64,000 bases of DNA from positions 50,712-114,711 of the forward strand of contig JBBQRF010000002.1 in NCBI GenBank assembly GCA_038215155.1, in the 5' to 3' direction. The stretch is from Minisyncoccia bacterium. Its GTDB lineage: Bacteria > Patescibacteriota > Minisyncoccia > Phycocordibacterales > CAJBRS01. Position 1 is the first letter of the stretch. Every line of letters starts with the position of its first letter. Under the pieces are notes generated by a model. That model was not told the origin of the DNA, ran no database searches, and was given only the letters and a program-made list of their open reading frames with translations. Positions 980 through 64,000 of the stretch are shown here, piece after piece. The translations under genes were made by a program, and so were the position numbers.

Positions 980-2584
980 TTAGATAACCGACATCTTCTT
1001 AGGTCGATACTGCAAGGCTTCTAAAATATGCTTCGGCTCTATTTTTTTAGCACGATCTAAATCAGCAATTGTTTGAGCTAGTTTAATTAAACGATGATAG
1101 GCCCGGGCAGAAATGTCTAATTGATAGGCGGCCTTGTCTAAAATTTCTTTGACCTCGTGGTCTAGAGAGATTATATTTAATAAGTCACGGGGTTTTATTT
1201 CACTATTTGTGTGAATGAATATTTTATTTTGTTGAAATCGTTTGGCAGCGAGCTCTCTAGCTCGGATTACTCTTTTACGAACCACTTCTGTGGTTTCTCC
1301 AGAAATTTTGGTTCCTAATTTTTTATAATCTACTTCGCTGACTTCTAACCAAATATCCACTCTATCAATTATAGGGCCCGAAATTTTCCTTTCGTAACTT
1401 AGTAGATTGGGCGCGCGACAAATGCATTCTCTTTTTGGATTTCCCCGATTACCACAAGGGCATGGATTCATGGCAGCAATTAAAATAAAATTAGCTGGAA
1501 AAATGGCCGAGCTCTTTGCTCTTGCAACACTCACCACCTTTTCTTCAAGAGGTTCTCTCAATGAATCTATAACTTTCCGGTCAAACTCGGGGAATTCATC
1601 CAGAAACAGTACTCCCTTGTGAGCTAAAGTCACTTCTCCCGGTTTTGGAGTGGTACCGCCGCCAATTAATGAAGGGTAGGAAGAAGTATGGTGCGGTGAG
1701 CGAAAAGGTGCTCTTAAAATAAGAGGCTGATCTTTTAAGAGGCCGCAGACAGAATGAATTGATGTTACTTCCAGCATATCTTTAAAAGAAAGAGGAGGGA
1801 GGAGATATGAAAAAGCTTTAGCCAACATAGTTTTTCCAGTACCCGGAGGACCAAACATAATGACATTATGAGCACCGGCAGCAGCAATCTCTAGGCCGCG
1901 CTTAGCTTTCTCCTGTCCCTTAATATCGGCAATATCAATTTCCGGCGCCCCTGCCTCTTCTTTTATTTTTGTTTGTGGAGCGGAAATAATTTTAATTGAA
2001 GGAATGCAGGGTATTTCAGAGTTGGAGTTAGACGCGCCCGCAGGATCTGGCGGCGGGCGCGTATTCAAATGAGAAATTGCATCGCTTAATTTTTCTAATG
2101 GAAAAACTTTAATTCCGGAAATAATGGCTGCTTCTGAAGCATTCTCTTTAGGAACAAAAATATCCCGAAAACCTTTTCTCTTTGCTTCAATTACTAATGG
2201 CAGAACTCCTTTAATAGGTCGCAATTTTCCATCTAAAGCCAATTCTCCTAGGAAAAGTTTATCAGCGGGATCGAAGCGGATATCATCTGCGGCTAAAAGA
2301 TAGGCTAACGCCATAGCCAAATCAAAAGTCGGCCCCTCCTTTCGAATGTTAGCTGGAGCAAGTGCAATGACCACTTTTTGATTTTTATTTTTAGGAGAAG
2401 TAAAACCACTATTTTTAATAGCGGCCCCTATCCTGTCCTTGGCTTCTCCAATTGCTTTATCGGGTAATCCCACAATAGAAAAATTATAAAGTCCTTTTGA
2501 AAGATCAACCTCCACATCAATAATGCGCGCCTTAAGAAGATAGCTTTGAGCGCTAAATACTTTTGAAAAACTCATGCCGTCCAA
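980..2584 (-). CDS. comM: YifB/ComM family Mg-chelatase-like AAA+ ATPase (competence-associated)
   Basis: Lon-like N-terminal domain. Walker A GPPGTGKT and Walker B LFLDEF. C4 cysteine cluster CPCGNRGNPKRECIC, typical of the YifB family. Confidence 0.85.
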   Translation of the reverse strand: MDGMSFSKVFSAQSYLLKARIIDVEVDLSKGLYNFSIVGLPDKAIGEAKDRIGAAIKNSGFTSPKNKNQKVVIALAPANIRKEGPTFDLAMALAYLLAADDIRFDPADKLFLGELALDGKLRPIKGVLPLVIEAKRKGFRDIFVPKENASEAAIISGIKVFPLEKLSDAISHLNTRPPPDPAGASNSNSEIPCIPSIKIISAPQTKIKEEAGAPEIDIADIKGQEKAKRGLEIAAAGAHNVIMFGPPGTGKTMLAKAFSYLLPPLSFKDMLEVTSIHSVCGLLKDQPLILRAPFRSPHHTSSYPSLIGGGTTPKPGEVTLAHKGVLFLDEFPEFDRKVIDSLREPLEEKVVSVARAKSSAIFPANFILIAAMNPCPCGNRGNPKRECICRAPNLLSYERKISGPIIDRVDIWLEVSEVDYKKLGTKISGETTEVVRKRVIRARELAAKRFQQNKIFIHTNSEIKPRDLLNIISLDHEVKEILDKAAYQLDISARAYHRLIKLAQTIADLDRAKKIEPKHILEALQYRPKKMSVI

Positions 2585-2629
2585 TTATAAATCGGACGGC
2601 ATGAGTTTCTTCTAAAGAAAAGTTAAATT

Positions 2630-2995
2630 TTAAGAAACCTTTTGATTGAGATGAGTCTTACAAGTACGGGCAGCCGCATTGGCTTCTAATCTTTCTATTT
2701 CAATATCTTTACCACAAACTTCACATTTTCCGTACTCTCCTTTCTCCATTTTTTCTAAAGCCAGATTAATATCTTGTAATTGGGGTTCCAACTTGCTCAT
2801 TATGGCTGCATCTCCCTCAATACTCTCGATCTTATCAGCCACCTCATTACGATCAGCAGAAAGAATATCTAAATTCTCGGCGATTGGTTCCCAGTCATTG
2901 GGGTTGTTAGGGTTCTGCCGGCTAACTCCTGACAATTCGCTAATCAAAGTTTCTTTTTCCTTCTCTAATTTTTCTTTAAAGTGATTTGTATCCAT
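2630..2995 (-). CDS. DksA/TraR family C4-type zinc-finger protein
   Basis: N-terminal coiled coil plus C-terminal CxxC-(17)-CxxH finger (CEVCGKDIEIERLEANAAARTCKTH). Confidence 0.75.
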   Translation of the reverse strand: MDTNHFKEKLEKEKETLISELSGVSRQNPNNPNDWEPIAENLDILSADRNEVADKIESIEGDAAIMSKLEPQLQDINLALEKMEKGEYGKCEVCGKDIEIERLEANAAARTCKTHLNQKVS

Positions 2996-3007
2996 GGAGT
3001 GATTTTA

Positions 3008-3925
3008 TTAGTTATTTCCCCTATTAGCAAGGTAACGACTAAGAATTTCATCAAAGGCGTTCTGACTTTTTACGAAAATTATAGTCGCGGGATCAATAAA
3101 AGAATAAATAAAAGTAGGATTACCACCATCTTCTAAAAGAACTCTAGCGTCACGATTATCGATAATTCTATCGACAAATGTTCGAGCAGAAGAAGTGGCG
3201 GAGTCAGTCGGCAAATTAAAAAGAGAACCAAGATCGTTAGAAATATTAGGTTCCCATTGGAGCATTCCCGGAAAAGCATTGGCATACGAATCACTTTTAA
3301 GGATGAGAACAGGTTCATTGCCTGAACTATTTTGATAATAACCTACAATGTAATCATTTTGGATGGATCTAAATAGATTGCCTGGCATGCGGCTCTGTAG
3401 AAGATTAAGGAAATTCGGAGCATTTAGATGTTCGCGAGCCGAGTGGCCATTTTGCGCGTCTAAATTACCTTTAACAGTAATTATCACATTTTCAATCGAA
3501 CCACTTTCTAAGATACTCTTATTGGCAACTAACCCATGAATTAGTCCATCCAATGTAACGTTATCGAGCTTCAACTCTACTGTTTTGTCGGTGACAATGA
3601 TTGTTCGAGCGACAGCCACTGGAAGAACGGTGTTGTTATGAGGACGGAAAATAAAATATCCCACAATGGCTAAACCAGAAGTAACTAAAATTGCACTAAG
3701 AATGATGAGGACAATACGTTTTTTGGATTCGGTAGATACTTCTTCGCTAGCTACACCCTGTCTTTCTTGACGACGTTTTTCCGCCACGGCCATTTTAATA
3801 ACGGAAACGTTGTCTCGTTTAATAGCCTCTGCCACATCAGTTTGGTAGGTTTTAATATTTCTTAACGGCTCTTCCGCCTTTTCTTTTTTAGCTTTTTCTA
3901 AGGCTTCTTCTAAATCAGAACTCAT
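3008..3925 (-). CDS. Hypothetical single-pass membrane protein
   Basis: One TM helix (RIVLIILSAILVTSGLAIVGYFIF) after a charged N-terminus. No recognisable catalytic motif. Confidence 0.5.
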   Translation of the reverse strand: MSSDLEEALEKAKKEKAEEPLRNIKTYQTDVAEAIKRDNVSVIKMAVAEKRRQERQGVASEEVSTESKKRIVLIILSAILVTSGLAIVGYFIFRPHNNTVLPVAVARTIIVTDKTVELKLDNVTLDGLIHGLVANKSILESGSIENVIITVKGNLDAQNGHSAREHLNAPNFLNLLQSRMPGNLFRSIQNDYIVGYYQNSSGNEPVLILKSDSYANAFPGMLQWEPNISNDLGSLFNLPTDSATSSARTFVDRIIDNRDARVLLEDGGNPTFIYSFIDPATIIFVKSQNAFDEILSRYLANRGNN

Positions 3926-3953
3926 TCTTTAATTTTATATTAAAGCGACATTA

Positions 3954-6056
3954 TTACGAACTAGGATTTTTGATGAAGTTAGGATCAGCGCGTTTGATCG
4001 AAAGACTAATGCGTCCCCTATCATCCACCTCTTTCACTACTACGGGCACGCGATCACCCTCTTTTAAGATTTTACTAACATCCTCCACTCTGAAAGAAGC
4101 TATCTCAGATACGTGAACCAGGCCTTCCGTACCACTGCCAATCTTAACAAAAGCTCCAAAATCCATAATTTTAATTACGATTCCATCAAATTTTTCTCCA
4201 GCTTTATATTCATGAGTCATTTCCGCAATAATGATTTTTGCCTTTTCAGCAGTTCCTTCTTTGCCTGTAATGTAGACCGTGCCGTCATCCTCAATATCAA
4301 TTTCTGCTCCAGTCTTCTCTTTAATTTCTTTAATAGTTTTACCACCCGAGCCGATAATTAATCCTATTTGGTCAGGTTTAATTTTAATAGAGAGAATTTT
4401 TGGTGCCTTAGGTGAGATGTCTGTGCGAGGAGCGGCAATAGCTTTTTCAATAACATCGAGAATTTGTAGGCGCGCCCGCTCCGCCGTTTCAAAGGCCTTG
4501 GCTAATATAGAAAGTGGAATACCATCTACCTTAACGTCCATTTGAACGGCCGTAATACCGGCGCGAGTGCCTGCCACTTTAAAATCCATATCGCCATGAT
4601 GATCTTCCGGGCCCTGGATGTCTGTAAGAAGAACATAATTTTTCTCATCCCTCATCATTAATCCCGAGGCAATGCCCGCCACTGGCGCTTTAATCGGCAC
4701 ACCTCCATCCATTAAAGCTAAAGTCGAAGCGCAGACAGAACCCATGGAGGTAGAGCCATTGGAAGCCATTGATTCCGAAACTAAACGAATGGTGTAGGGA
4801 AAACTTTCTTTTTCGGGAATAACAGCTAACAGAGCTTTTTCGGCTAAATTACCATGACCAATCATGCGACGATTCAATCCTCCCATTCGGCCCGTTTCAC
4901 CGGTAGAGAAAGGTGGAAAGTTATAGTGATGAAGGAAACGCTTATCGGTCTGTAACTCCATTCCATCAATAGTTTGAGTATCTCCAGGGCCGCCTAAAGT
5001 AAGAGCAGAGAGAACGTGAGTGCCCCCACGGTAGAATATGCCGGATCCGTGAAGCATAGGCGAAAGGCCGCCGGCTTCGGCAAAGAGGGGTCGGATTTCT
5101 TCGAGGCCCCGGCCATCAGGCCGGCGCTTTTTCTCGATAGCTTCTCGGTGAATAATGTCATTCACTTTTTCCTCAAAATACTCACTTGAAAGAGACATTT
5201 TCTCGTCCGGGAATTTTTCAATATATAATTTTACCCATTCTTCTTTTAATTCTTCAGATTTTTTCTTTCCTGGTCCGGAGAAGACGGCGGCTTCAAGTTC
5301 CGGTTCAATTTTTTCAGTAAATAATTCGGCTCCTTTTTCGGGGAAATTTAAAAATTCTAGTTTTGTTTTCTCTTTGCCAATTTCTTGAATGATCTTTTTT
5401 TGAAAAGTTTGAATTTTTTCAATTTCAGCGGCAGCCAATTCTAGAGCCGCGGTGGCAAGCGTATTAGAAATTTCTTTAGCCCCCACTTCAATCATATTAA
5501 TATTGCCGTCTTTACCACAAGCCACTAAGTCAATATTAGAAAACTCTCTGTCCTTGTATATCGGATTGATTAATAAATCATTTTCACCTTTGCGCTGACC
5601 GACTCGAACGGCACTTACCGGCCCTCTCCAAGGAATATTAGAAGTGCTGAGAGCTAAAGAAGCGGCAATGACAGCCAAGACATCAGGATCATCTTCCTCA
5701 ATGGATAAAATCATAATTACTACCTGTACATCATTTCTAATTCGCTGATCAAATAGGGGGCGAATGGTGCGATCTACCACTCTTCCAGAAAGAATAGCCT
5801 CGTCAGAAGGCCGCCCTTCGCGGCGAGTGAACTGACCGCCGAGAATTCGGCCGGCCGCATAAAATTTTTCCTCGTAATCAACAGTAAGAGGAAAGAAGTC
5901 ACCATCCTTGAGCTTTTTCGACATCACTGCCGAAGCAAAGACTAATGTATTCCCGTAACGTATCAAAACAGATCCATTAGATTGTTCGGCTAAATCATTA
6001 AACTCAGCCGTCAGAGTTTTACCTCCGAGCTCCATAGAAAATTGCTTTTTTTGCAT
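3954..6056 (-). CDS. pnp: Polyribonucleotide nucleotidyltransferase (PNPase)
   Basis: Two RNase PH domains plus C-terminal KH (IGLIIGSGGKTIKEI) and S1 (GIVIKIMDFGAFVKI) domains. Conserved rpsO-pnp neighbourhood. Confidence 0.95.
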   Translation of the reverse strand: MQKKQFSMELGGKTLTAEFNDLAEQSNGSVLIRYGNTLVFASAVMSKKLKDGDFFPLTVDYEEKFYAAGRILGGQFTRREGRPSDEAILSGRVVDRTIRPLFDQRIRNDVQVVIMILSIEEDDPDVLAVIAASLALSTSNIPWRGPVSAVRVGQRKGENDLLINPIYKDREFSNIDLVACGKDGNINMIEVGAKEISNTLATAALELAAAEIEKIQTFQKKIIQEIGKEKTKLEFLNFPEKGAELFTEKIEPELEAAVFSGPGKKKSEELKEEWVKLYIEKFPDEKMSLSSEYFEEKVNDIIHREAIEKKRRPDGRGLEEIRPLFAEAGGLSPMLHGSGIFYRGGTHVLSALTLGGPGDTQTIDGMELQTDKRFLHHYNFPPFSTGETGRMGGLNRRMIGHGNLAEKALLAVIPEKESFPYTIRLVSESMASNGSTSMGSVCASTLALMDGGVPIKAPVAGIASGLMMRDEKNYVLLTDIQGPEDHHGDMDFKVAGTRAGITAVQMDVKVDGIPLSILAKAFETAERARLQILDVIEKAIAAPRTDISPKAPKILSIKIKPDQIGLIIGSGGKTIKEIKEKTGAEIDIEDDGTVYITGKEGTAEKAKIIIAEMTHEYKAGEKFDGIVIKIMDFGAFVKIGSGTEGLVHVSEIASFRVEDVSKILKEGDRVPVVVKEVDDRGRISLSIKRADPNFIKNPSS

Positions 6057-12323: not shown

Positions 12324-12468
12324 AATGTCCTTTATAATATAGAGCTATTTTATTTCGGGGCGCCGGGAAAATATGGTAAAACTAGCTCCACCATAATTTT
12401 GAGTTGGTTGTCTCTTTACCATAGATTTATTCTCCCCGGTTGTAATTTCCGGGTTCGAATCCCTCCCT

Positions 12469-12541
12469 TCGGGGCGCCGGGATTCGAACCCGGAGTCGCT
12501 TGATCCCAAATCAAGAATGTTAGCCGTTACACCACGCCCCG
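12469..12541 (-). tRNA. tRNA-Pro (anticodon TGG)
   Basis: Minus-strand cloverleaf. 7-bp acceptor CGGGGCG/CGCCCCG, anticodon loop TTTGGGA, T-arm CCGGGTTCGAATCCCGG. Confidence 0.85.
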
Positions 12542-17801: not shown

Positions 17802-17843
17802 CTTACGAAATTATCCTAGCAAATCAGTGTTCTTTTGCAAAAC

Positions 17844-17873
17844 AAAAGGCCGGCGCGAAGCGCCGGCCTTTTG
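17844..17873. terminator. Bidirectional rho-independent terminator between tRNA-Trp and hup
   Basis: AAAAGGCCGGCGCgaagGCGCCGGCCTTTT. Confidence 0.75.
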
Positions 17874-18164: not shown

Positions 18165-18243
18165 ATTAGGTTTTTTTAGTTTTTAATATTAGATATGACC
18201 GTTTCCATTATATATTAGGCCATTTTTGGCGCAAGCAGCAATT

Positions 18244-20556: not shown

Positions 20557-20584
20557 ATAAGTCGCTTTTTCCCCGCTCCTACGA

Positions 20585-20662
20585 ACTTTTGTCGAGGCGC
20601 GTTAGTTAATTTGGGTCCGCTAGGCCAAGTCTTACCCTCGCCAAAAGTTGCAGGACGGATCC
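20585..20662. repeat. Copy 1 of a ~65-80 nt palindromic repeat element (second copy at 63053-63162)
   Basis: acttttgtcgaggcgcgtYagtYaatttgggtccgctaggccaagtcttaccctcgcYaaaagt is about 90% identical between the two loci, with 13-14-bp terminal inverted repeats. Confidence 0.8.
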
Positions 20663-20720
20663 AAAAGCGACACATTATGTTCCAGTGAAACTTTCAAATG
20701 AAACTTGTTACAATTACAGG

Positions 20721-60262: not shown

Positions 60263-63049
60263 TTGTTGATGGAAGCACCTATTAGCACTAGTCCAGAAAC
60301 TAAATTTTCTTCAGCCGAAGAAGAGCTTCAATATTTGCGGGAGAAGATTGCGGAAAAAGAACGCGAACTCTCTAAAAATAAAGAGCAGTTTAACCGAGAG
60401 GAAGTAATTAGATCTGAACTAAAAGAATATAAAAACCAGCATCCGGCGGATGTTTTAGATAAAGGCCATGCCATGCTCGAATCGCATGTTGATGCGATAG
60501 TTTTAAATCTGTCTCCCGAATCTCATGATGCAAAAATGAGTGAGCTTCTCGGCTTGCTCCAAGAAAAGGGCATTATGAATGCGTTGTCAGTAGTGGAGAA
60601 AATGAATAATCCCCATATTGAAGACGATTTCCACCGCTTCCTAGTGGAATATATTAAGCAGGGATTTCCAGTCGAGGGGCTAAAAGAAAAAACTCTCATC
60701 GCCAAGGCTCTCCGCCACACTCTCTATGAAATTTCCTTGCCTATGGACGTTGAAAAGGACGAAAAAACTCACGGTCTAAAAGAAGTTTTATCCTCTATGG
60801 AGCAATTTTATGCGGGCATGCTTTCCGTATCTCTAAAGCATGCCGATCTGCGGGCTGAAGAAAACTTCTTTACCATCGAGCTCGCCAACTCTATCGGAAG
60901 TCAAGAATTTATTTTTTACGCTTCAGTTCCCGATGCTAAGCGAGACTTATTTGAAAAACAATTACTTTCCATTTTTCCAAAAGCCACCATTACTCTTCAG
61001 ACAAATGATTACAATGTTTTCACTGATCTTGGTGCTACTGCTGGATCCTATGGAGTTCAATCGACTAATCCAATTTTTCCAATTAAAAATTATGATCAAT
61101 TCAATTTCGACCCTCTAAACGTTCTTTTAAATACTTTTTCTAAATTAGAACAGCACGGAGAAGGGGCAGCTATTCAGTTAGTTTTTAATCCAGCGGGAGA
61201 TTATTACACCTCGCGCTACAAAGACGCCCTAAAAGAAATTCAAAAGGGCGTCCCATTGAAGAAAGCCATTGATATCAAACATAGTTTAGTCGGAGAATTA
61301 TTTAAGACTAGTAAAAATGCTGCCTTGGATTTAGCAGTCGGCACTATAAAAGGTGATTCAAAGGAAAAATCTTCGACCGATGAGAAGACTCTTGAAAATA
61401 TCCGAGAGAAGATAGAAAGTCCGGTTATTGAGGCTAATTTGCGGATTATCACCTCAGCTAAGACAGAATATCGGGCGAAGGAAATTCTTTCGGAAATCCA
61501 ATCGGCCTTTAATCAATTTGATAATACTACCGGTAATGCTATTAGATTCCGAGAGGAAAAAGGTTCTACTCTAGCCAATCTAGTGCGTCATTTTTCCTTT
61601 CGATACTTTGATAAAGATGAATCTCTTAAAATAAATCTGAAAGAGGCTACTACTTTAATGCACTTTCCAAGCGCCGGAGTGGTCCACTCCGCCGAGCTTC
61701 GCTCGGCTCATGCAGCCACCGCTCCGGCGCCCGTTGATTTGGGGAATGAGGGCATTCTTATTGGAATTAATCGTCATCGCAATCTTGAGACGAAAATCCA
61801 CATGGCTCCCGAAGATCGTCTGCGTCACTTTTATGCCGTCGGACAAACTGGTACAGGCAAGACCACTTTCCTTAAGAACATGATCATCCAAGATATTAGA
61901 AATGGTGATGGTGTCTGTATGATTGATCCTCACGGTTCTGATATTCAGGACATTCTCGCTAACATTCCCCAATCTCGTTACGAGGACGTTATTTATTTTG
62001 ATCCAAGCTACACGCCCCGCCCAATGGCTCTAAACATGCTTGAATACGACCCACGTTACCCCGAGCAGAAGACTTTCGTTGTAAATGAAATGCTCTCTAT
62101 CTTCAATAAACTTTTTGATATGAAAGTGGCTGGAGGTCCTATGTTTGAACAATACTTTCGAAACGCCACCATGCTCGTCATTGAAGATCCGGAGACTGGT
62201 AACACCCTTTTAGATGTTTCGCGTGTTTTAGCTCAAAAAAGTTTTCGCGAGTTGAAACTCTCACGTTGTAAAAATCCAATCGTTGTTCAGTTTTGGCGAG
62301 ACATTGCAGAGAAAGCCGGAGGAGAATCATCACTTGCGAATATTGTTCCCTACATTACTTCTAAATTTGACGTCTTTTTATCCAATGACATCATGCGGCC
62401 GATTATTGCCCAAGAACATTCTTCATTTAACTTTCGAGAGATCATGGATAATCGTAAGATCTTGCTGGTAAATTTAGCCAAGGGTCGTCTCGGTGATATT
62501 AACGCTAATCTCATCGGTCTAATTTTAGTAGGGAAAATTTTAATGTCCGCGCTTTCTCGAGTAGATTCTCTTGGCCAAGACTTACCACCTTTTTATCTAT
62601 ACATTGATGAGTTTCAGAACATTACCACTGATTCTATTGCCACCATTCTTTCTGAAGCACGAAAGTACAAACTCTCCCTTACAATTGCTCACCAATTTAT
62701 TAAGCAATTAGAAGAGAAAATAAAAGATGCTGTCTTTGGAAACGTGGGAACTATGGCTTCTTTTAGAGTAGGTAGCGATGATGCAGAGTTTCTAGAAAAA
62801 CAATTTGCTCCAGTCTTTTCAGCCCACGATTTAATGAATGTGGACAATCATAATGCTTACATTAAAATGCTTTCTCACGGCAAGCCGATTAAACCTTTCA
62901 GTATTGAGCAGTTAGGATTTCTGCCAAAAGGTAATGCGGACTTAATAGATAAGTTGAAGGAGTTATCATATTTGAAATTTGGCGAAGAGAGGGAGCTAGT
63001 AGAGGGGCGAATTATGGAGAAGTATCGCGCCGCTGCTACTAAGGTTTAA
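60263..63049 (+). CDS. Large P-loop NTPase of the FtsK/HerA/TraD-TraG (type IV secretion coupling protein-like, 'T4SS DNA-binding domain') superfamily. Uncharacterised ~480-aa N-terminal region.
   Basis: Walker A AVGQTGTGKTTF. Hydrophobic beta-strand plus Walker B FYLYIDEFQN. TIAHQ sensor-like motif. No TM helices evident. Confidence 0.7.
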   Translation: MLMEAPISTSPETKFSSAEEELQYLREKIAEKERELSKNKEQFNREEVIRSELKEYKNQHPADVLDKGHAMLESHVDAIVLNLSPESHDAKMSELLGLLQEKGIMNALSVVEKMNNPHIEDDFHRFLVEYIKQGFPVEGLKEKTLIAKALRHTLYEISLPMDVEKDEKTHGLKEVLSSMEQFYAGMLSVSLKHADLRAEENFFTIELANSIGSQEFIFYASVPDAKRDLFEKQLLSIFPKATITLQTNDYNVFTDLGATAGSYGVQSTNPIFPIKNYDQFNFDPLNVLLNTFSKLEQHGEGAAIQLVFNPAGDYYTSRYKDALKEIQKGVPLKKAIDIKHSLVGELFKTSKNAALDLAVGTIKGDSKEKSSTDEKTLENIREKIESPVIEANLRIITSAKTEYRAKEILSEIQSAFNQFDNTTGNAIRFREEKGSTLANLVRHFSFRYFDKDESLKINLKEATTLMHFPSAGVVHSAELRSAHAATAPAPVDLGNEGILIGINRHRNLETKIHMAPEDRLRHFYAVGQTGTGKTTFLKNMIIQDIRNGDGVCMIDPHGSDIQDILANIPQSRYEDVIYFDPSYTPRPMALNMLEYDPRYPEQKTFVVNEMLSIFNKLFDMKVAGGPMFEQYFRNATMLVIEDPETGNTLLDVSRVLAQKSFRELKLSRCKNPIVVQFWRDIAEKAGGESSLANIVPYITSKFDVFLSNDIMRPIIAQEHSSFNFREIMDNRKILLVNLAKGRLGDINANLIGLILVGKILMSALSRVDSLGQDLPPFYLYIDEFQNITTDSIATILSEARKYKLSLTIAHQFIKQLEEKIKDAVFGNVGTMASFRVGSDDAEFLEKQFAPVFSAHDLMNVDNHNAYIKMLSHGKPIKPFSIEQLGFLPKGNADLIDKLKELSYLKFGEERELVEGRIMEKYRAAATKV

Positions 63050-63052
63050 TTA

Positions 63053-63162
63053 GGAAAATCCTCCTATGTCCTAAGACTTTTGTCGAGGCGCGTCAGTCAA
63101 TTTGGGTCCGCTAGGCCAAGTCTTACCCTCGCTAAAAGTCTCAGGACACATCCGGATTTTCC
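63053..63162. repeat. Copy 2 of the palindromic repeat element (see 20585-20662), here with extended outer inverted repeats (ggaaaatcc...ggattttcc)
   Basis: Core of about 64 nt is roughly 90% identical to copy 1. Nested inverted repeats. Confidence 0.8.
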
Positions 63163-63225
63163 AGGCAGATTTCTTCAAATGGTTTTTTAGTTAAGTAGAA
63201 AGGAGAGGTATTTTCAGGCCTTCGG

Positions 63226-63410
63226 CATTTTCTATTTAGAGAGACTGCGCAGCCAATTAGAAAATAACAGCCAAAAAATTTGGTACCGGAGGCGCGCATA
63301 GGCGGAGACGATAGCGGCGCAGGCAAATTTTTGGGCGCCTTATTTTCTTGATTGGCGAGCGAGAACAAATCGCTAGCAAGCGATTATGTGTGCTCTCTAA
63401 ATAGAAAATG
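63226..63410. mobile_element. MITE-like 185-bp element with perfect 18-bp terminal inverted repeats and a GC-rich interior
   Basis: cattttctatttagagag (63226-63243) and ctctctaaatagaaaatg (63393-63410) are exact reverse complements. Confidence 0.55.
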
Positions 63411-63512
63411 CGGAAGGCGTTAAGAAAAAAACAGACTTAATATACAAACTAGAACAATATGCCGGTTTCATGTAAGATATGATTCTTACTTATTAAATTC
63501 TAAATTTCCAAA

Positions 63513-64000
63513 ATGCCCCACCACAAAGAAGAACGCACCCTAGTCATCATTAAGCCCGATGGAGTTCAGCGAACTCTGATTGGCGAAATTATCAAGCGCT
63601 ATGAAAAAGCCGGCTTAAAATTACTTGGCATAAAAATGATCGTACCTGATATAGAACACATAGAAAAACATTACACCTTAGATCCAAACTGGCGACGAGT
63701 GACGGGTGAAAAAACTATTAAAGGATATCAAGATAAAGGATTGACTCCACCTTCGATGGACCCCTTAGAAATTACAGCTAAAATCCTTGCTGGCTTAAAG
63801 AAGTATCTTTCCAGTGGGCCTGTAATACCGATGGTCTGGCAGGGAGCTCATGCAGTGAAAATTGTCCGAAAGATTACTGGTGGAACGGAACCCTTAACTT
63901 CTGATGTCGGTTCTATTCGTGGAGATTTCGTTCTAGATTCATATCAAATGTCTGATACTGATGGCCGAGCGGTTCGCAACCTCGTTCACGCTTCTGGCTC
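63513..64000 (+). CDS. ndk: Nucleoside diphosphate kinase (3' end beyond the window)
   Basis: ERTLVIIKPDGVQR...YLSSGPVIPMVWQG (GPV/V..WEG-like)...NLVHASG (H..GSD active-site His region). Confidence 0.85.
   Translation, partial: MPHHKEERTLVIIKPDGVQRTLIGEIIKRYEKAGLKLLGIKMIVPDIEHIEKHYTLDPNWRRVTGEKTIKGYQDKGLTPPSMDPLEITAKILAGLKKYLSSGPVIPMVWQGAHAVKIVRKITGGTEPLTSDVGSIRGDFVLDSYQMSDTDGRAVRNLVHASG

Follow-up and report, generated by a model that had tools for sequence, protein, structure and literature searches.

BOX elements of Streptococcus pneumoniae (boxA-boxB(n)-boxC) are intergenic, multi-copy and modular: their ends pair, their internal modules vary and they form stable folds. To our knowledge, no transposase is associated with them. 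Rickettsia palindromic elements (RPEs) are palindromic repeats, 100-150 bp long, retained in small reduced genomes. RNase III stems, as in rRNA intervening sequences, the T7 R sites and lambda sib, consist of a long, near-perfect helix of free sequence formed from the ends of an insert, and act on the fate of the upstream RNA. In proteobacteria, the repetitive extragenic palindromes (REP) and the related BIME and REPIN are described in PMC12306157 as dispersed extragenic hairpins, located mostly at the 3' ends of genes and often no more than 15 nt past the stop codon, which affect mRNA stability and translation termination. Here we describe Element 2 (63218-63418), a hairpin element between a HerA/TraG-like ATPase gene and ndk in a 64,000-nucleotide stretch of the genome of a Minisyncoccia bacterium of the Patescibacteria (assembly GCA_038215155.1, contig JBBQRF010000002.1, positions 50,712 to 114,711; hereafter the window, in whose numbering all its positions are given). 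We estimate at roughly 0.6 the probability that it is an atypical insertion belonging to a dispersed and modular hairpin family of Patescibacteria, whose canonical copies act in cis as 3' untranslated regions (3' UTRs). For the overall description, i.e. a structured hairpin family, a closing helix in place of the annotated terminal inverted repeat (TIR) and an atypical insertion in the window, our confidence is high; it is only moderate for the cis-acting RNA mechanism.

Among described systems, the family would work most like a REP or a BOX-type element; it differs from both by its free ends, its conserved branched core, its swappable modules and its polarity a few nucleotides behind stop codons. 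With REP and REPIN it shares the dispersed extragenic placement at gene 3' ends and short foot motifs beside the hairpin, and the spread of REP is thought to depend on the hairpin. REP, however, conserves a palindrome of 20-40 nt, whereas the Element 2 family conserves a branched interior of ~150 nt and leaves the closing helix free; it has no GTAG foot and no sequence similarity to REP. The end modules of BOX are conserved in sequence, unlike those of the Element 2 family, and BOX belongs to another host phylum; here too there is no sequence similarity. RPEs often stand in frame inside genes, whereas the Element 2 family lies outside open reading frames (ORFs) and is polar to stop codons. It resembles RNase III stems in the design of the helix, but stands behind protein-coding genes and has a conserved branched core.

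Integron attC sites also come right after a co-oriented ORF and conserve structure over sequence, and attC works as folded single-stranded DNA (ssDNA). The Element 2 family differs in that it has no R-box ends (RYYYAAC / GTTRRRY), its copies are isolated and not arrayed, and its neighbours are housekeeping genes. An attC site was rejected as a candidate, the R''/R' consensus being absent at the helix ends and cassette arrays being absent as well. A retron non-coding RNA was also rejected: no reverse transcriptase gene lies downstream, the neighbours being the ATPase gene and ndk here and housekeeping genes elsewhere. Miniature inverted-repeat transposable elements (MITEs), such as the Correia elements of Neisseria, ERIC and RUP, resemble the family in size, in their non-coding nature, in the inverted repeat at their ends and in copies that differ between genomes. 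In MITEs, though, the TIRs are conserved, match an autonomous insertion sequence and come with regular target-site duplications. In the Element 2 family the termini are not conserved, ~1 Mb of related DNA holds no autonomous partner, and the window copy has no target-site duplication.

A branched hairpin family with free ends

Element 2 is a complete hairpin element with a three-way junction and a divergent member of its family, as identified by covariance model, nhmmer and folds. It is assigned to the minus strand, which corresponds to the family's usual mRNA-sense (C-rich) orientation and is opposite to that of the ATPase gene and ndk. The initial annotation had described a perfect 18-bp inverted repeat bounding 185 bp, and this is confirmed: CATTTTCTATTTAGAGAG occupies 63226-63243 and its exact reverse complement 63393-63410. 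Beyond the 18 bp the pairing goes on, for a total of 26 bp that includes one mismatch (63218-63243 / 63393-63418), and with 31 nt at 90% complementarity the repeat finder identifies it as the longest inverted repeat of the window. The whole ~200 nt fold into a three-way junction and not into two arms around an unstructured interior, at -92.9 kcal/mol for the plus strand (z -8.6 against shuffles) and -86.3 kcal/mol for the minus strand (z -9.6). The interior, reported before as GC-rich, is therefore not featureless filler.

The closing helix, P1, is formed by 63218-63243 as its first arm and 63393-63418 as its second, each containing one of the two 18-mers. Inside it, on the minus strand, are the P2 hairpin (AATCGC-loop-GCGATT, 63368-63385), which is the most strongly covarying helix of the family, and the base of P3, with CAATCAAGAAAA as 5' strand (63343-63354) and TTTTCTAATTG as 3' strand (63254-63264). 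The distal arm of P3 (63265-63342) is a well-paired module of its own, with an inner repeat at 63270-63282 / 63324-63336. P1, P2 and the P3 base are all present in the window copy; as its helices are intact and P1 is near-perfect, it does not look like a decaying one. The family's apical motif, CGCAAACTCG-hairpin-CTCAAACAGTGC, is absent from its distal arm, and we found no relatives of this arm in ~1 Mb of fetched Patescibacteria DNA. No co-oriented ORF lies upstream of the copy, and 168 nt separate it from the ATPase stop codon. Though intact, the copy is atypical, being inverted with respect to both neighbours and having a swapped distal module.

The 18-mer is unique in the window: no further copy occurs at up to three mismatches, with 0.22 chance matches expected. 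No direct repeat flanks 63226 and 63410, nor the true helix ends at 63218 and 63418, so that the target-site duplication anticipated for a mobile element is missing; the bases adjoining the 18-mers are mutually complementary rather than duplicated. The initial annotation had weighed its mobile-element reading against a unique repeat whose interior would match a known structured RNA. The repeat is indeed unique in the window and the interior adopts a conserved structured fold, but no known family accounts for it: Rfam 15 gives no family at its gathering score in the window and only chance matches in the spacer (E above 1), and four typical members have no relevant Rfam match at E up to 1. 6S RNA, SRP RNA and the guide-RNA scaffolds of TnpB, IscB and IS110 were rejected as candidates, in view of the missing partner genes, the multiple copies and the missing Rfam match.

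Relatives of the element are numerous. Judged by 80 ATPase loci fetched from public genomes, the window is part of a Paceibacteria-like genome within the Patescibacteria. Only one of these 80 relatives, L080, carries a homologue of Element 2 detectable by BLAST, directly after the ATPase gene and in the opposite orientation. It has the architecture and the core of the window copy; the closing helices are identical at 8 of 18 positions, and both are fully paired. A two-part pattern made of the core common to these two copies was scanned against metagenome contigs and gave 32 loci, ~23 of which are true relatives, with at most three per contig. An nhmmer profile and a covariance model, R1, added full-length copies as well as shorter and longer modular variants, and the scan and the model together yield more than 30 relatives in Patescibacteria contigs. 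R1 matches the window at 63229-63407 on the minus strand over model positions 1-183, with 118.8 bits and E 2.8e-27. Among the full-length matches this score is towards the bottom, the others scoring 103-202 bits; the nhmmer score of the window copy is 92.5 bits. The match to R1 is partly by construction, since the window copy is among the 24 sequences from which the model was built. Its membership is supported independently, as L080 was found by BLAST and the metagenome matches by the pattern of those two.

Element 2 is the only copy of its family in the window; elsewhere in Patescibacteria the family is dispersed, and other contigs carry two to three copies each. The family appears to be undescribed so far, as our literature searches turned up no account of such elements for Patescibacteria. 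Scanning viral contigs with the cores of both hairpin elements of the spacer and with the two-part pattern gave no match, and neither did a BLAST search of plasmid and phage records with the spacer carrying both.

The spurious 75-aa ORF of the initial annotation exists on the minus strand (63141-63368), spans Element 2 and is indeed spurious, with no Pfam match and no homologue. Any reading frame across the family is broken, because its indels amount to +4 and +10 nt. For the same reason, and because its ATG is missing in many members, a 34-codon ORF seen in some of them was rejected. A query with the antisense frame returned nine short 'hypothetical proteins' from a public protein database (P0001-P0009); these are translations of the G-rich strand of family copies, i.e. 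artefacts of gene calling. Around the family copy in L112, ~3 kb (1526-4590) contain no long ORF, which is unusual for such compact genomes.

Covariation was computed on the model-based alignment, with shuffles and slid partners as controls. Standard pairs fill 94.2% of the cells, against 71% in shuffles, and both sides have changed in 46 of 51 pairs. Covariation scores 0.51, compared with 0.14 in shuffles (0 of 500 reach 0.51) and 0.07-0.10 with slid partners. P2 changes on both sides in all of its 10 pairs and is 97% paired. The length of P1 ranges from 12 to 27 bp across the family, and ~24 copies, three of them from a single contig, have unrelated termini; conservation is found in the junction strands, the frame of the P2 hairpin and the P3 base. 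The invariance of the P3 base in the seed alignment A3 is partly circular, since CAATCAAGAAAA / TTTTCTAATTG was fixed by the search pattern; in copies found with the profile it varies slightly, e.g. to TCAAGAAAA on the 5' strand in L079 and L107:14373-14497.

As the termini are unrelated while the interior is conserved, the 'TIR' is a covarying closing helix and not a conserved protein-binding terminus. The 18-bp repeat had been taken for a TIR of the transposase type, and this has to be given up: its sequence differs in every copy, around an interior that is conserved and covaries. It is the closing helix P1 of a three-way junction with a small P2 and a long P3.

The family is built from interchangeable modules. 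The typical form has P2 and the long arm. Others have P2 only (L091:1026-1110), P2 and a second module (L091:6453-6611), or P2, the second module and the long arm (L088:12073-12344). Further variants occur in L107:14373-14497, L104:2011-2135, L052:5371-5459 and L032:6225-6313.

Placement behind stop codons and the acting strand

We counted polarity on 35 model matches, taking the C-rich strand as sense and looking for a stop codon within 45 nt of the 5' end. Of the 35, 23 follow the end of a co-oriented ORF within this distance, and only 3 do so when the orientation is mirrored; by our own count, ~20 of 31 stand behind a co-oriented stop once orthologous loci are collapsed. The stop codon lies mostly 9-13 nt ahead of the model start, and a linker of 9 nt up to the first paired base is the commonest, judged by eye. 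The upstream genes encode RNase J, RNase Y, RNase III, the CCA-adding enzyme, histidyl-tRNA synthetase (HisRS), EF-G, trigger factor, peptidyl-tRNA hydrolase (Pth), an S41 protease and a TPM-domain protein. As these housekeeping genes are unrelated, a common regulon is unlikely. Reading the flanks by eye, we found a terminator of the convergent downstream gene itself between gene and element at several loci; at least in L084, there is also a terminator past the element, read in sense. This placement of terminators locates the element inside the transcription unit of the upstream gene.

The orthologous copies of L091 and L109 are 91% identical, their locus-specific closing helix included. In the flanking coding DNA, identity is ~70-80% in most 100-nt windows (range 55-80%), and it is 76% between the HisRS proteins. 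Such identity of the element relative to its flanks points to purifying selection on the family, or to its homogenisation, rather than to drift. An element of ~190 nt that is retained behind essential genes and is better conserved than they are is also unlikely to be neutral, because Patescibacteria genomes measure ~1 Mb or less and hold very little non-coding DNA.

Canonical copies would probably be transcribed together with the upstream gene, as its 3' UTR, with the long perfect closing helix starting about at the leading edge of the terminating ribosome. Acting in cis, this helix could be a barrier against 3' exonucleases, a processing site of the RNase III type or a brake on the terminating ribosome. 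In E. coli, REP hairpins no more than 15 nt past the stop codon are reported to stall ribosomes and to reduce translation (PMC12306157, after its reference 17). In the window, this stop-adjacent geometry is present in Element 1, the other hairpin of the spacer, which begins 3 nt past the ATPase stop codon, and not in Element 2. The mechanism by which the family spreads would read the hairpin shape together with short foot motifs, and not conserved termini. By our reading, in more than half of the copies the foot of P1 is ..YTC| at the 5' side and |TCR.. at the 3' side.

Several observations weigh against canonical copies acting in cis as RNA. Twelve of the 35 copies, the window's among them, are not behind a co-oriented gene. 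In two contigs (L088:5477-5666 and L114:9954-10143), a reversed copy separates pilC (T2SSF) from a pilin gene, which indicates that reversed copies can be conserved as well. Among 1,428 cells, 1337 pairs are Watson-Crick, 14 are G·U (~1%) and 31 are A·C, and such strict Watson-Crick pairing is as compatible with folded ssDNA, or with a constraint on both strands, as it is with RNA, if not more so. In 27 of 28 copies the more stable fold is that of the complementary, G-rich strand, by 9 kcal/mol on average; the apex of this strand reads GCGAAGC or GCGTAGC, which would form a DNA mini-hairpin of exceptional stability. Loops of the sense strand are rich in pyrimidines, and the strand has a GC skew of -0.16; a mutational bias behind this skew was excluded, the third codon positions of the upstream genes being without skew. 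The tests for the acting strand, i.e. the G·U and A·C counts, the folding energies and the base skew, are in conflict. Finally, we found no pair of empty and filled sites that defines the boundaries of an insertion, as the spacers are unalignable and the relatives share at most 76% nucleotide identity next to L080.

Part of this evidence could be read in favour of a selfish ssDNA hairpin, similar to REPIN/RAYT or IS200/IS605, that an HUH/Y1 enzyme cuts at its feet, with no role for RNA and with gene polarity arising from strand-specific exposure during replication. The nearly exclusive Watson-Crick pairing would agree with it, as would a G-rich strand that folds better and carries a GNA triloop closed by C-G, a free helix sequence next to recurrent feet, and the dispersed, sporadic occurrence of copies across genomes. 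The foot pattern recalls structure-guided HUH/Y1 systems (REP/RAYT) more closely than a 2-bp target duplication. Such a hairpin does not predict the tight spacing to stop codons, however. In L087, two copies 7 kb apart have opposite orientations, each after its own upstream gene. The lagging-strand template of co-directional genes would expose the C-rich strand, which is the one that folds less well, and at orthologous sites the element is better conserved than its neighbours, which is unusual for selfish DNA. We therefore regard this explanation as rather unlikely.

A free-standing, trans-acting small RNA gene, possibly on the G-rich strand (plus in the window) and with several paralogues per genome, is improbable. 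It would account for the strong covariation and sequence conservation and for the better fold and purine-rich internal loops of the G-rich strand; given the lack of any Rfam match, it would be a new RNA. No conserved promoter is found on either side, though, and no conserved -10 or -35 on the side of the G-rich strand, where at several loci the terminator of the convergent gene lies just ahead of the element. G·U pairs are nearly absent, modules are freely gained and lost, and the occurrence is sporadic among close relatives, none of which speaks for such a gene.

More improbable still is a classical MITE, i.e. a deletion derivative of a DNA transposon that is mobilised in trans by a TIR-binding transposase and leaves target-site duplications. 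The initial annotation was right in that both hairpins are non-coding palindromic insertions, and the Element 2 family is small, multi-copy, dispersed and polymorphic between genomes, with an inverted repeat at its ends. No conserved TIR could be found in the family, and no target-site duplication at the window copy. The TC..TC pair that flanks many copies throughout the family could be a 2-bp duplication, yet in the short variants of L052 and L032 these feet are within an internal loop, with an extra outer helix beyond them. Termini unrelated even between copies of the same contig, around a conserved interior, and the strong polarity to stop codons also speak against a MITE; the window copy has no flanking direct repeat, and ~1 Mb of related DNA contains no longer element or transposase with such ends.

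Coming back to the cis-acting 3' UTR, it may be one form of a broader possibility, which we put forward tentatively: a new, Patescibacteria-specific functional structured element. It would be a modular three-way junction standing one ribosome footprint behind the stops of essential genes, under purifying selection stronger than that on these genes and changing by strictly Watson-Crick covariation. It could be either a 3'-UTR RNA device, controlling processing, stability or termination, or a folded ssDNA site. A folded ssDNA site with a structure-specific enzyme would also explain movement without conserved ends.

The ATPase-ndk junction and Element 1

The ATPase gene (60263-63049, plus strand) and ndk (63513-64000, plus strand, truncated by the end of the window) are separated by a spacer of 463 nt (63050-63512), the length stated in the initial annotation. 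The two palindromic elements that it had placed there, Element 1 (63053-63162) and Element 2, are both recovered as inverted repeats and as folds. We found no intrinsic terminator within 62900-63700 and no promoter match in the spacer. In the absence of a terminator, both elements are probably carried on one ATPase-ndk transcript.

An ordinary intrinsic terminator, or a chance palindrome, has a negligible probability for Element 2: its position between two genes and the frequency of short palindromes in A/T-rich DNA would suit either, but no U-tract follows the helix, the z-scores weigh against both, the more than 30 homologues refute them, and the terminators of this genome are canonical and GC-rich. 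One of the latter, with a UUCG loop and a U-tract, follows a gene for an HU-like protein (17843-17873). As the organism uses such ordinary terminators, the long A/T-rich helices of the elements must be something else.

Element 1 has a second copy in the window, as previously annotated. The 110-nt hairpin behind the ATPase gene (copy 2) has arms of 36 nt with 81% complementarity; copy 1 is located in the divergent clpP-rsmE spacer (20561-20671). The two copies are 89.5% identical over 86 nt, with a nearly identical core of ~62 nt (TTTGGGTCCGCTAGGCCAAGTC...). Towards the outside identity falls and changes are compensated, e.g. from G-C to A-T, and the outermost 9-bp helices, GGAAAATCC in one and GTCGCTTTT in the other, are unrelated in sequence and both perfect. 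Element 1 has the same design as Element 2, with an unrelated sequence. No relatives of it occur in ~1 Mb of fetched Patescibacteria DNA, and no target-site duplication is found at Element 1.

In relatives, the junction is conserved. The ATPase gene is followed by ndk in 43 of the 80 loci, with spacers mostly of 24-200 nt that lack Elements 1 and 2, and it is preceded by map in 32 of 80. The conserved order map-ATPase-ndk indicates insertion and not rearrangement, and the link that the initial annotation had drawn to a displaced alpha operon does not hold. Judged by this comparison, both elements of the window are gains in an otherwise conserved junction. Family members also stand after the ATPase gene in L080 (full length) and in L052 (short variant), as independent occupations, which makes the 3' spacer of the ATPase gene a recurrent landing site. 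The proposed hotspot of recombination and insertion is retained in the sense that this spacer has been filled repeatedly; no rearrangement accompanies it.

A second comparison comes from the HU-RNase Y-ClpP / rsmE … tig order, which is common to the window, L113 and L100. The RNase Y-HU spacer holds a full family copy in L113 (10008-10189) and L100 (7786-7967) and is empty in the window (18166-18243). This is an orthologous filled/empty site, too diverged to define the boundaries.

Other observations concern the same junction in relatives. In L059 the ATPase-ndk spacer is 505 nt long (5335-5840) and apparently holds two small ORFs, which would make it a further, independent case of insertion at this place. 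In L012 (5323-5461) and L015 (3782-3957), a long A/T-rich hairpin with similar arms is found just past the ATPase stop codon; its loop is CTCCA at one locus and a 29-nt insert at the other. The difference suggests that hairpin loops of this clade gain or lose small modules.

Elsewhere in the window, the 3' end of tRNA-Pro(tgg) is duplicated ~100 nt away as a 14-nt direct repeat, TCGGGGCGCCGGGA (12353-12366 / 12468-12481). A perfect 16-bp inverted copy of the tRNA T-arm lies between the repeats (12448-12463 vs 12479-12494). The region looks like a possible att-site scar or tRNA remnant, and its only Rfam matches are the annotated tRNAs.

Meaning for Patescibacteria

The Element 2 family inverts the usual logic of bacterial repeats, in that conservation resides in the branched interior while the sequence of the ends is free. 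A further oddity is that a clear polarity to translation stops is combined with a pairing pattern that is more DNA-like than RNA-like. For annotation, the covariance model R1 makes it possible to mask the spurious ORFs that are called on family copies. As for the biology of these bacteria, the family may turn out to represent a structure-guided mechanism of mobility, or a new control of mRNA 3' ends in organisms that are short of many known regulators.

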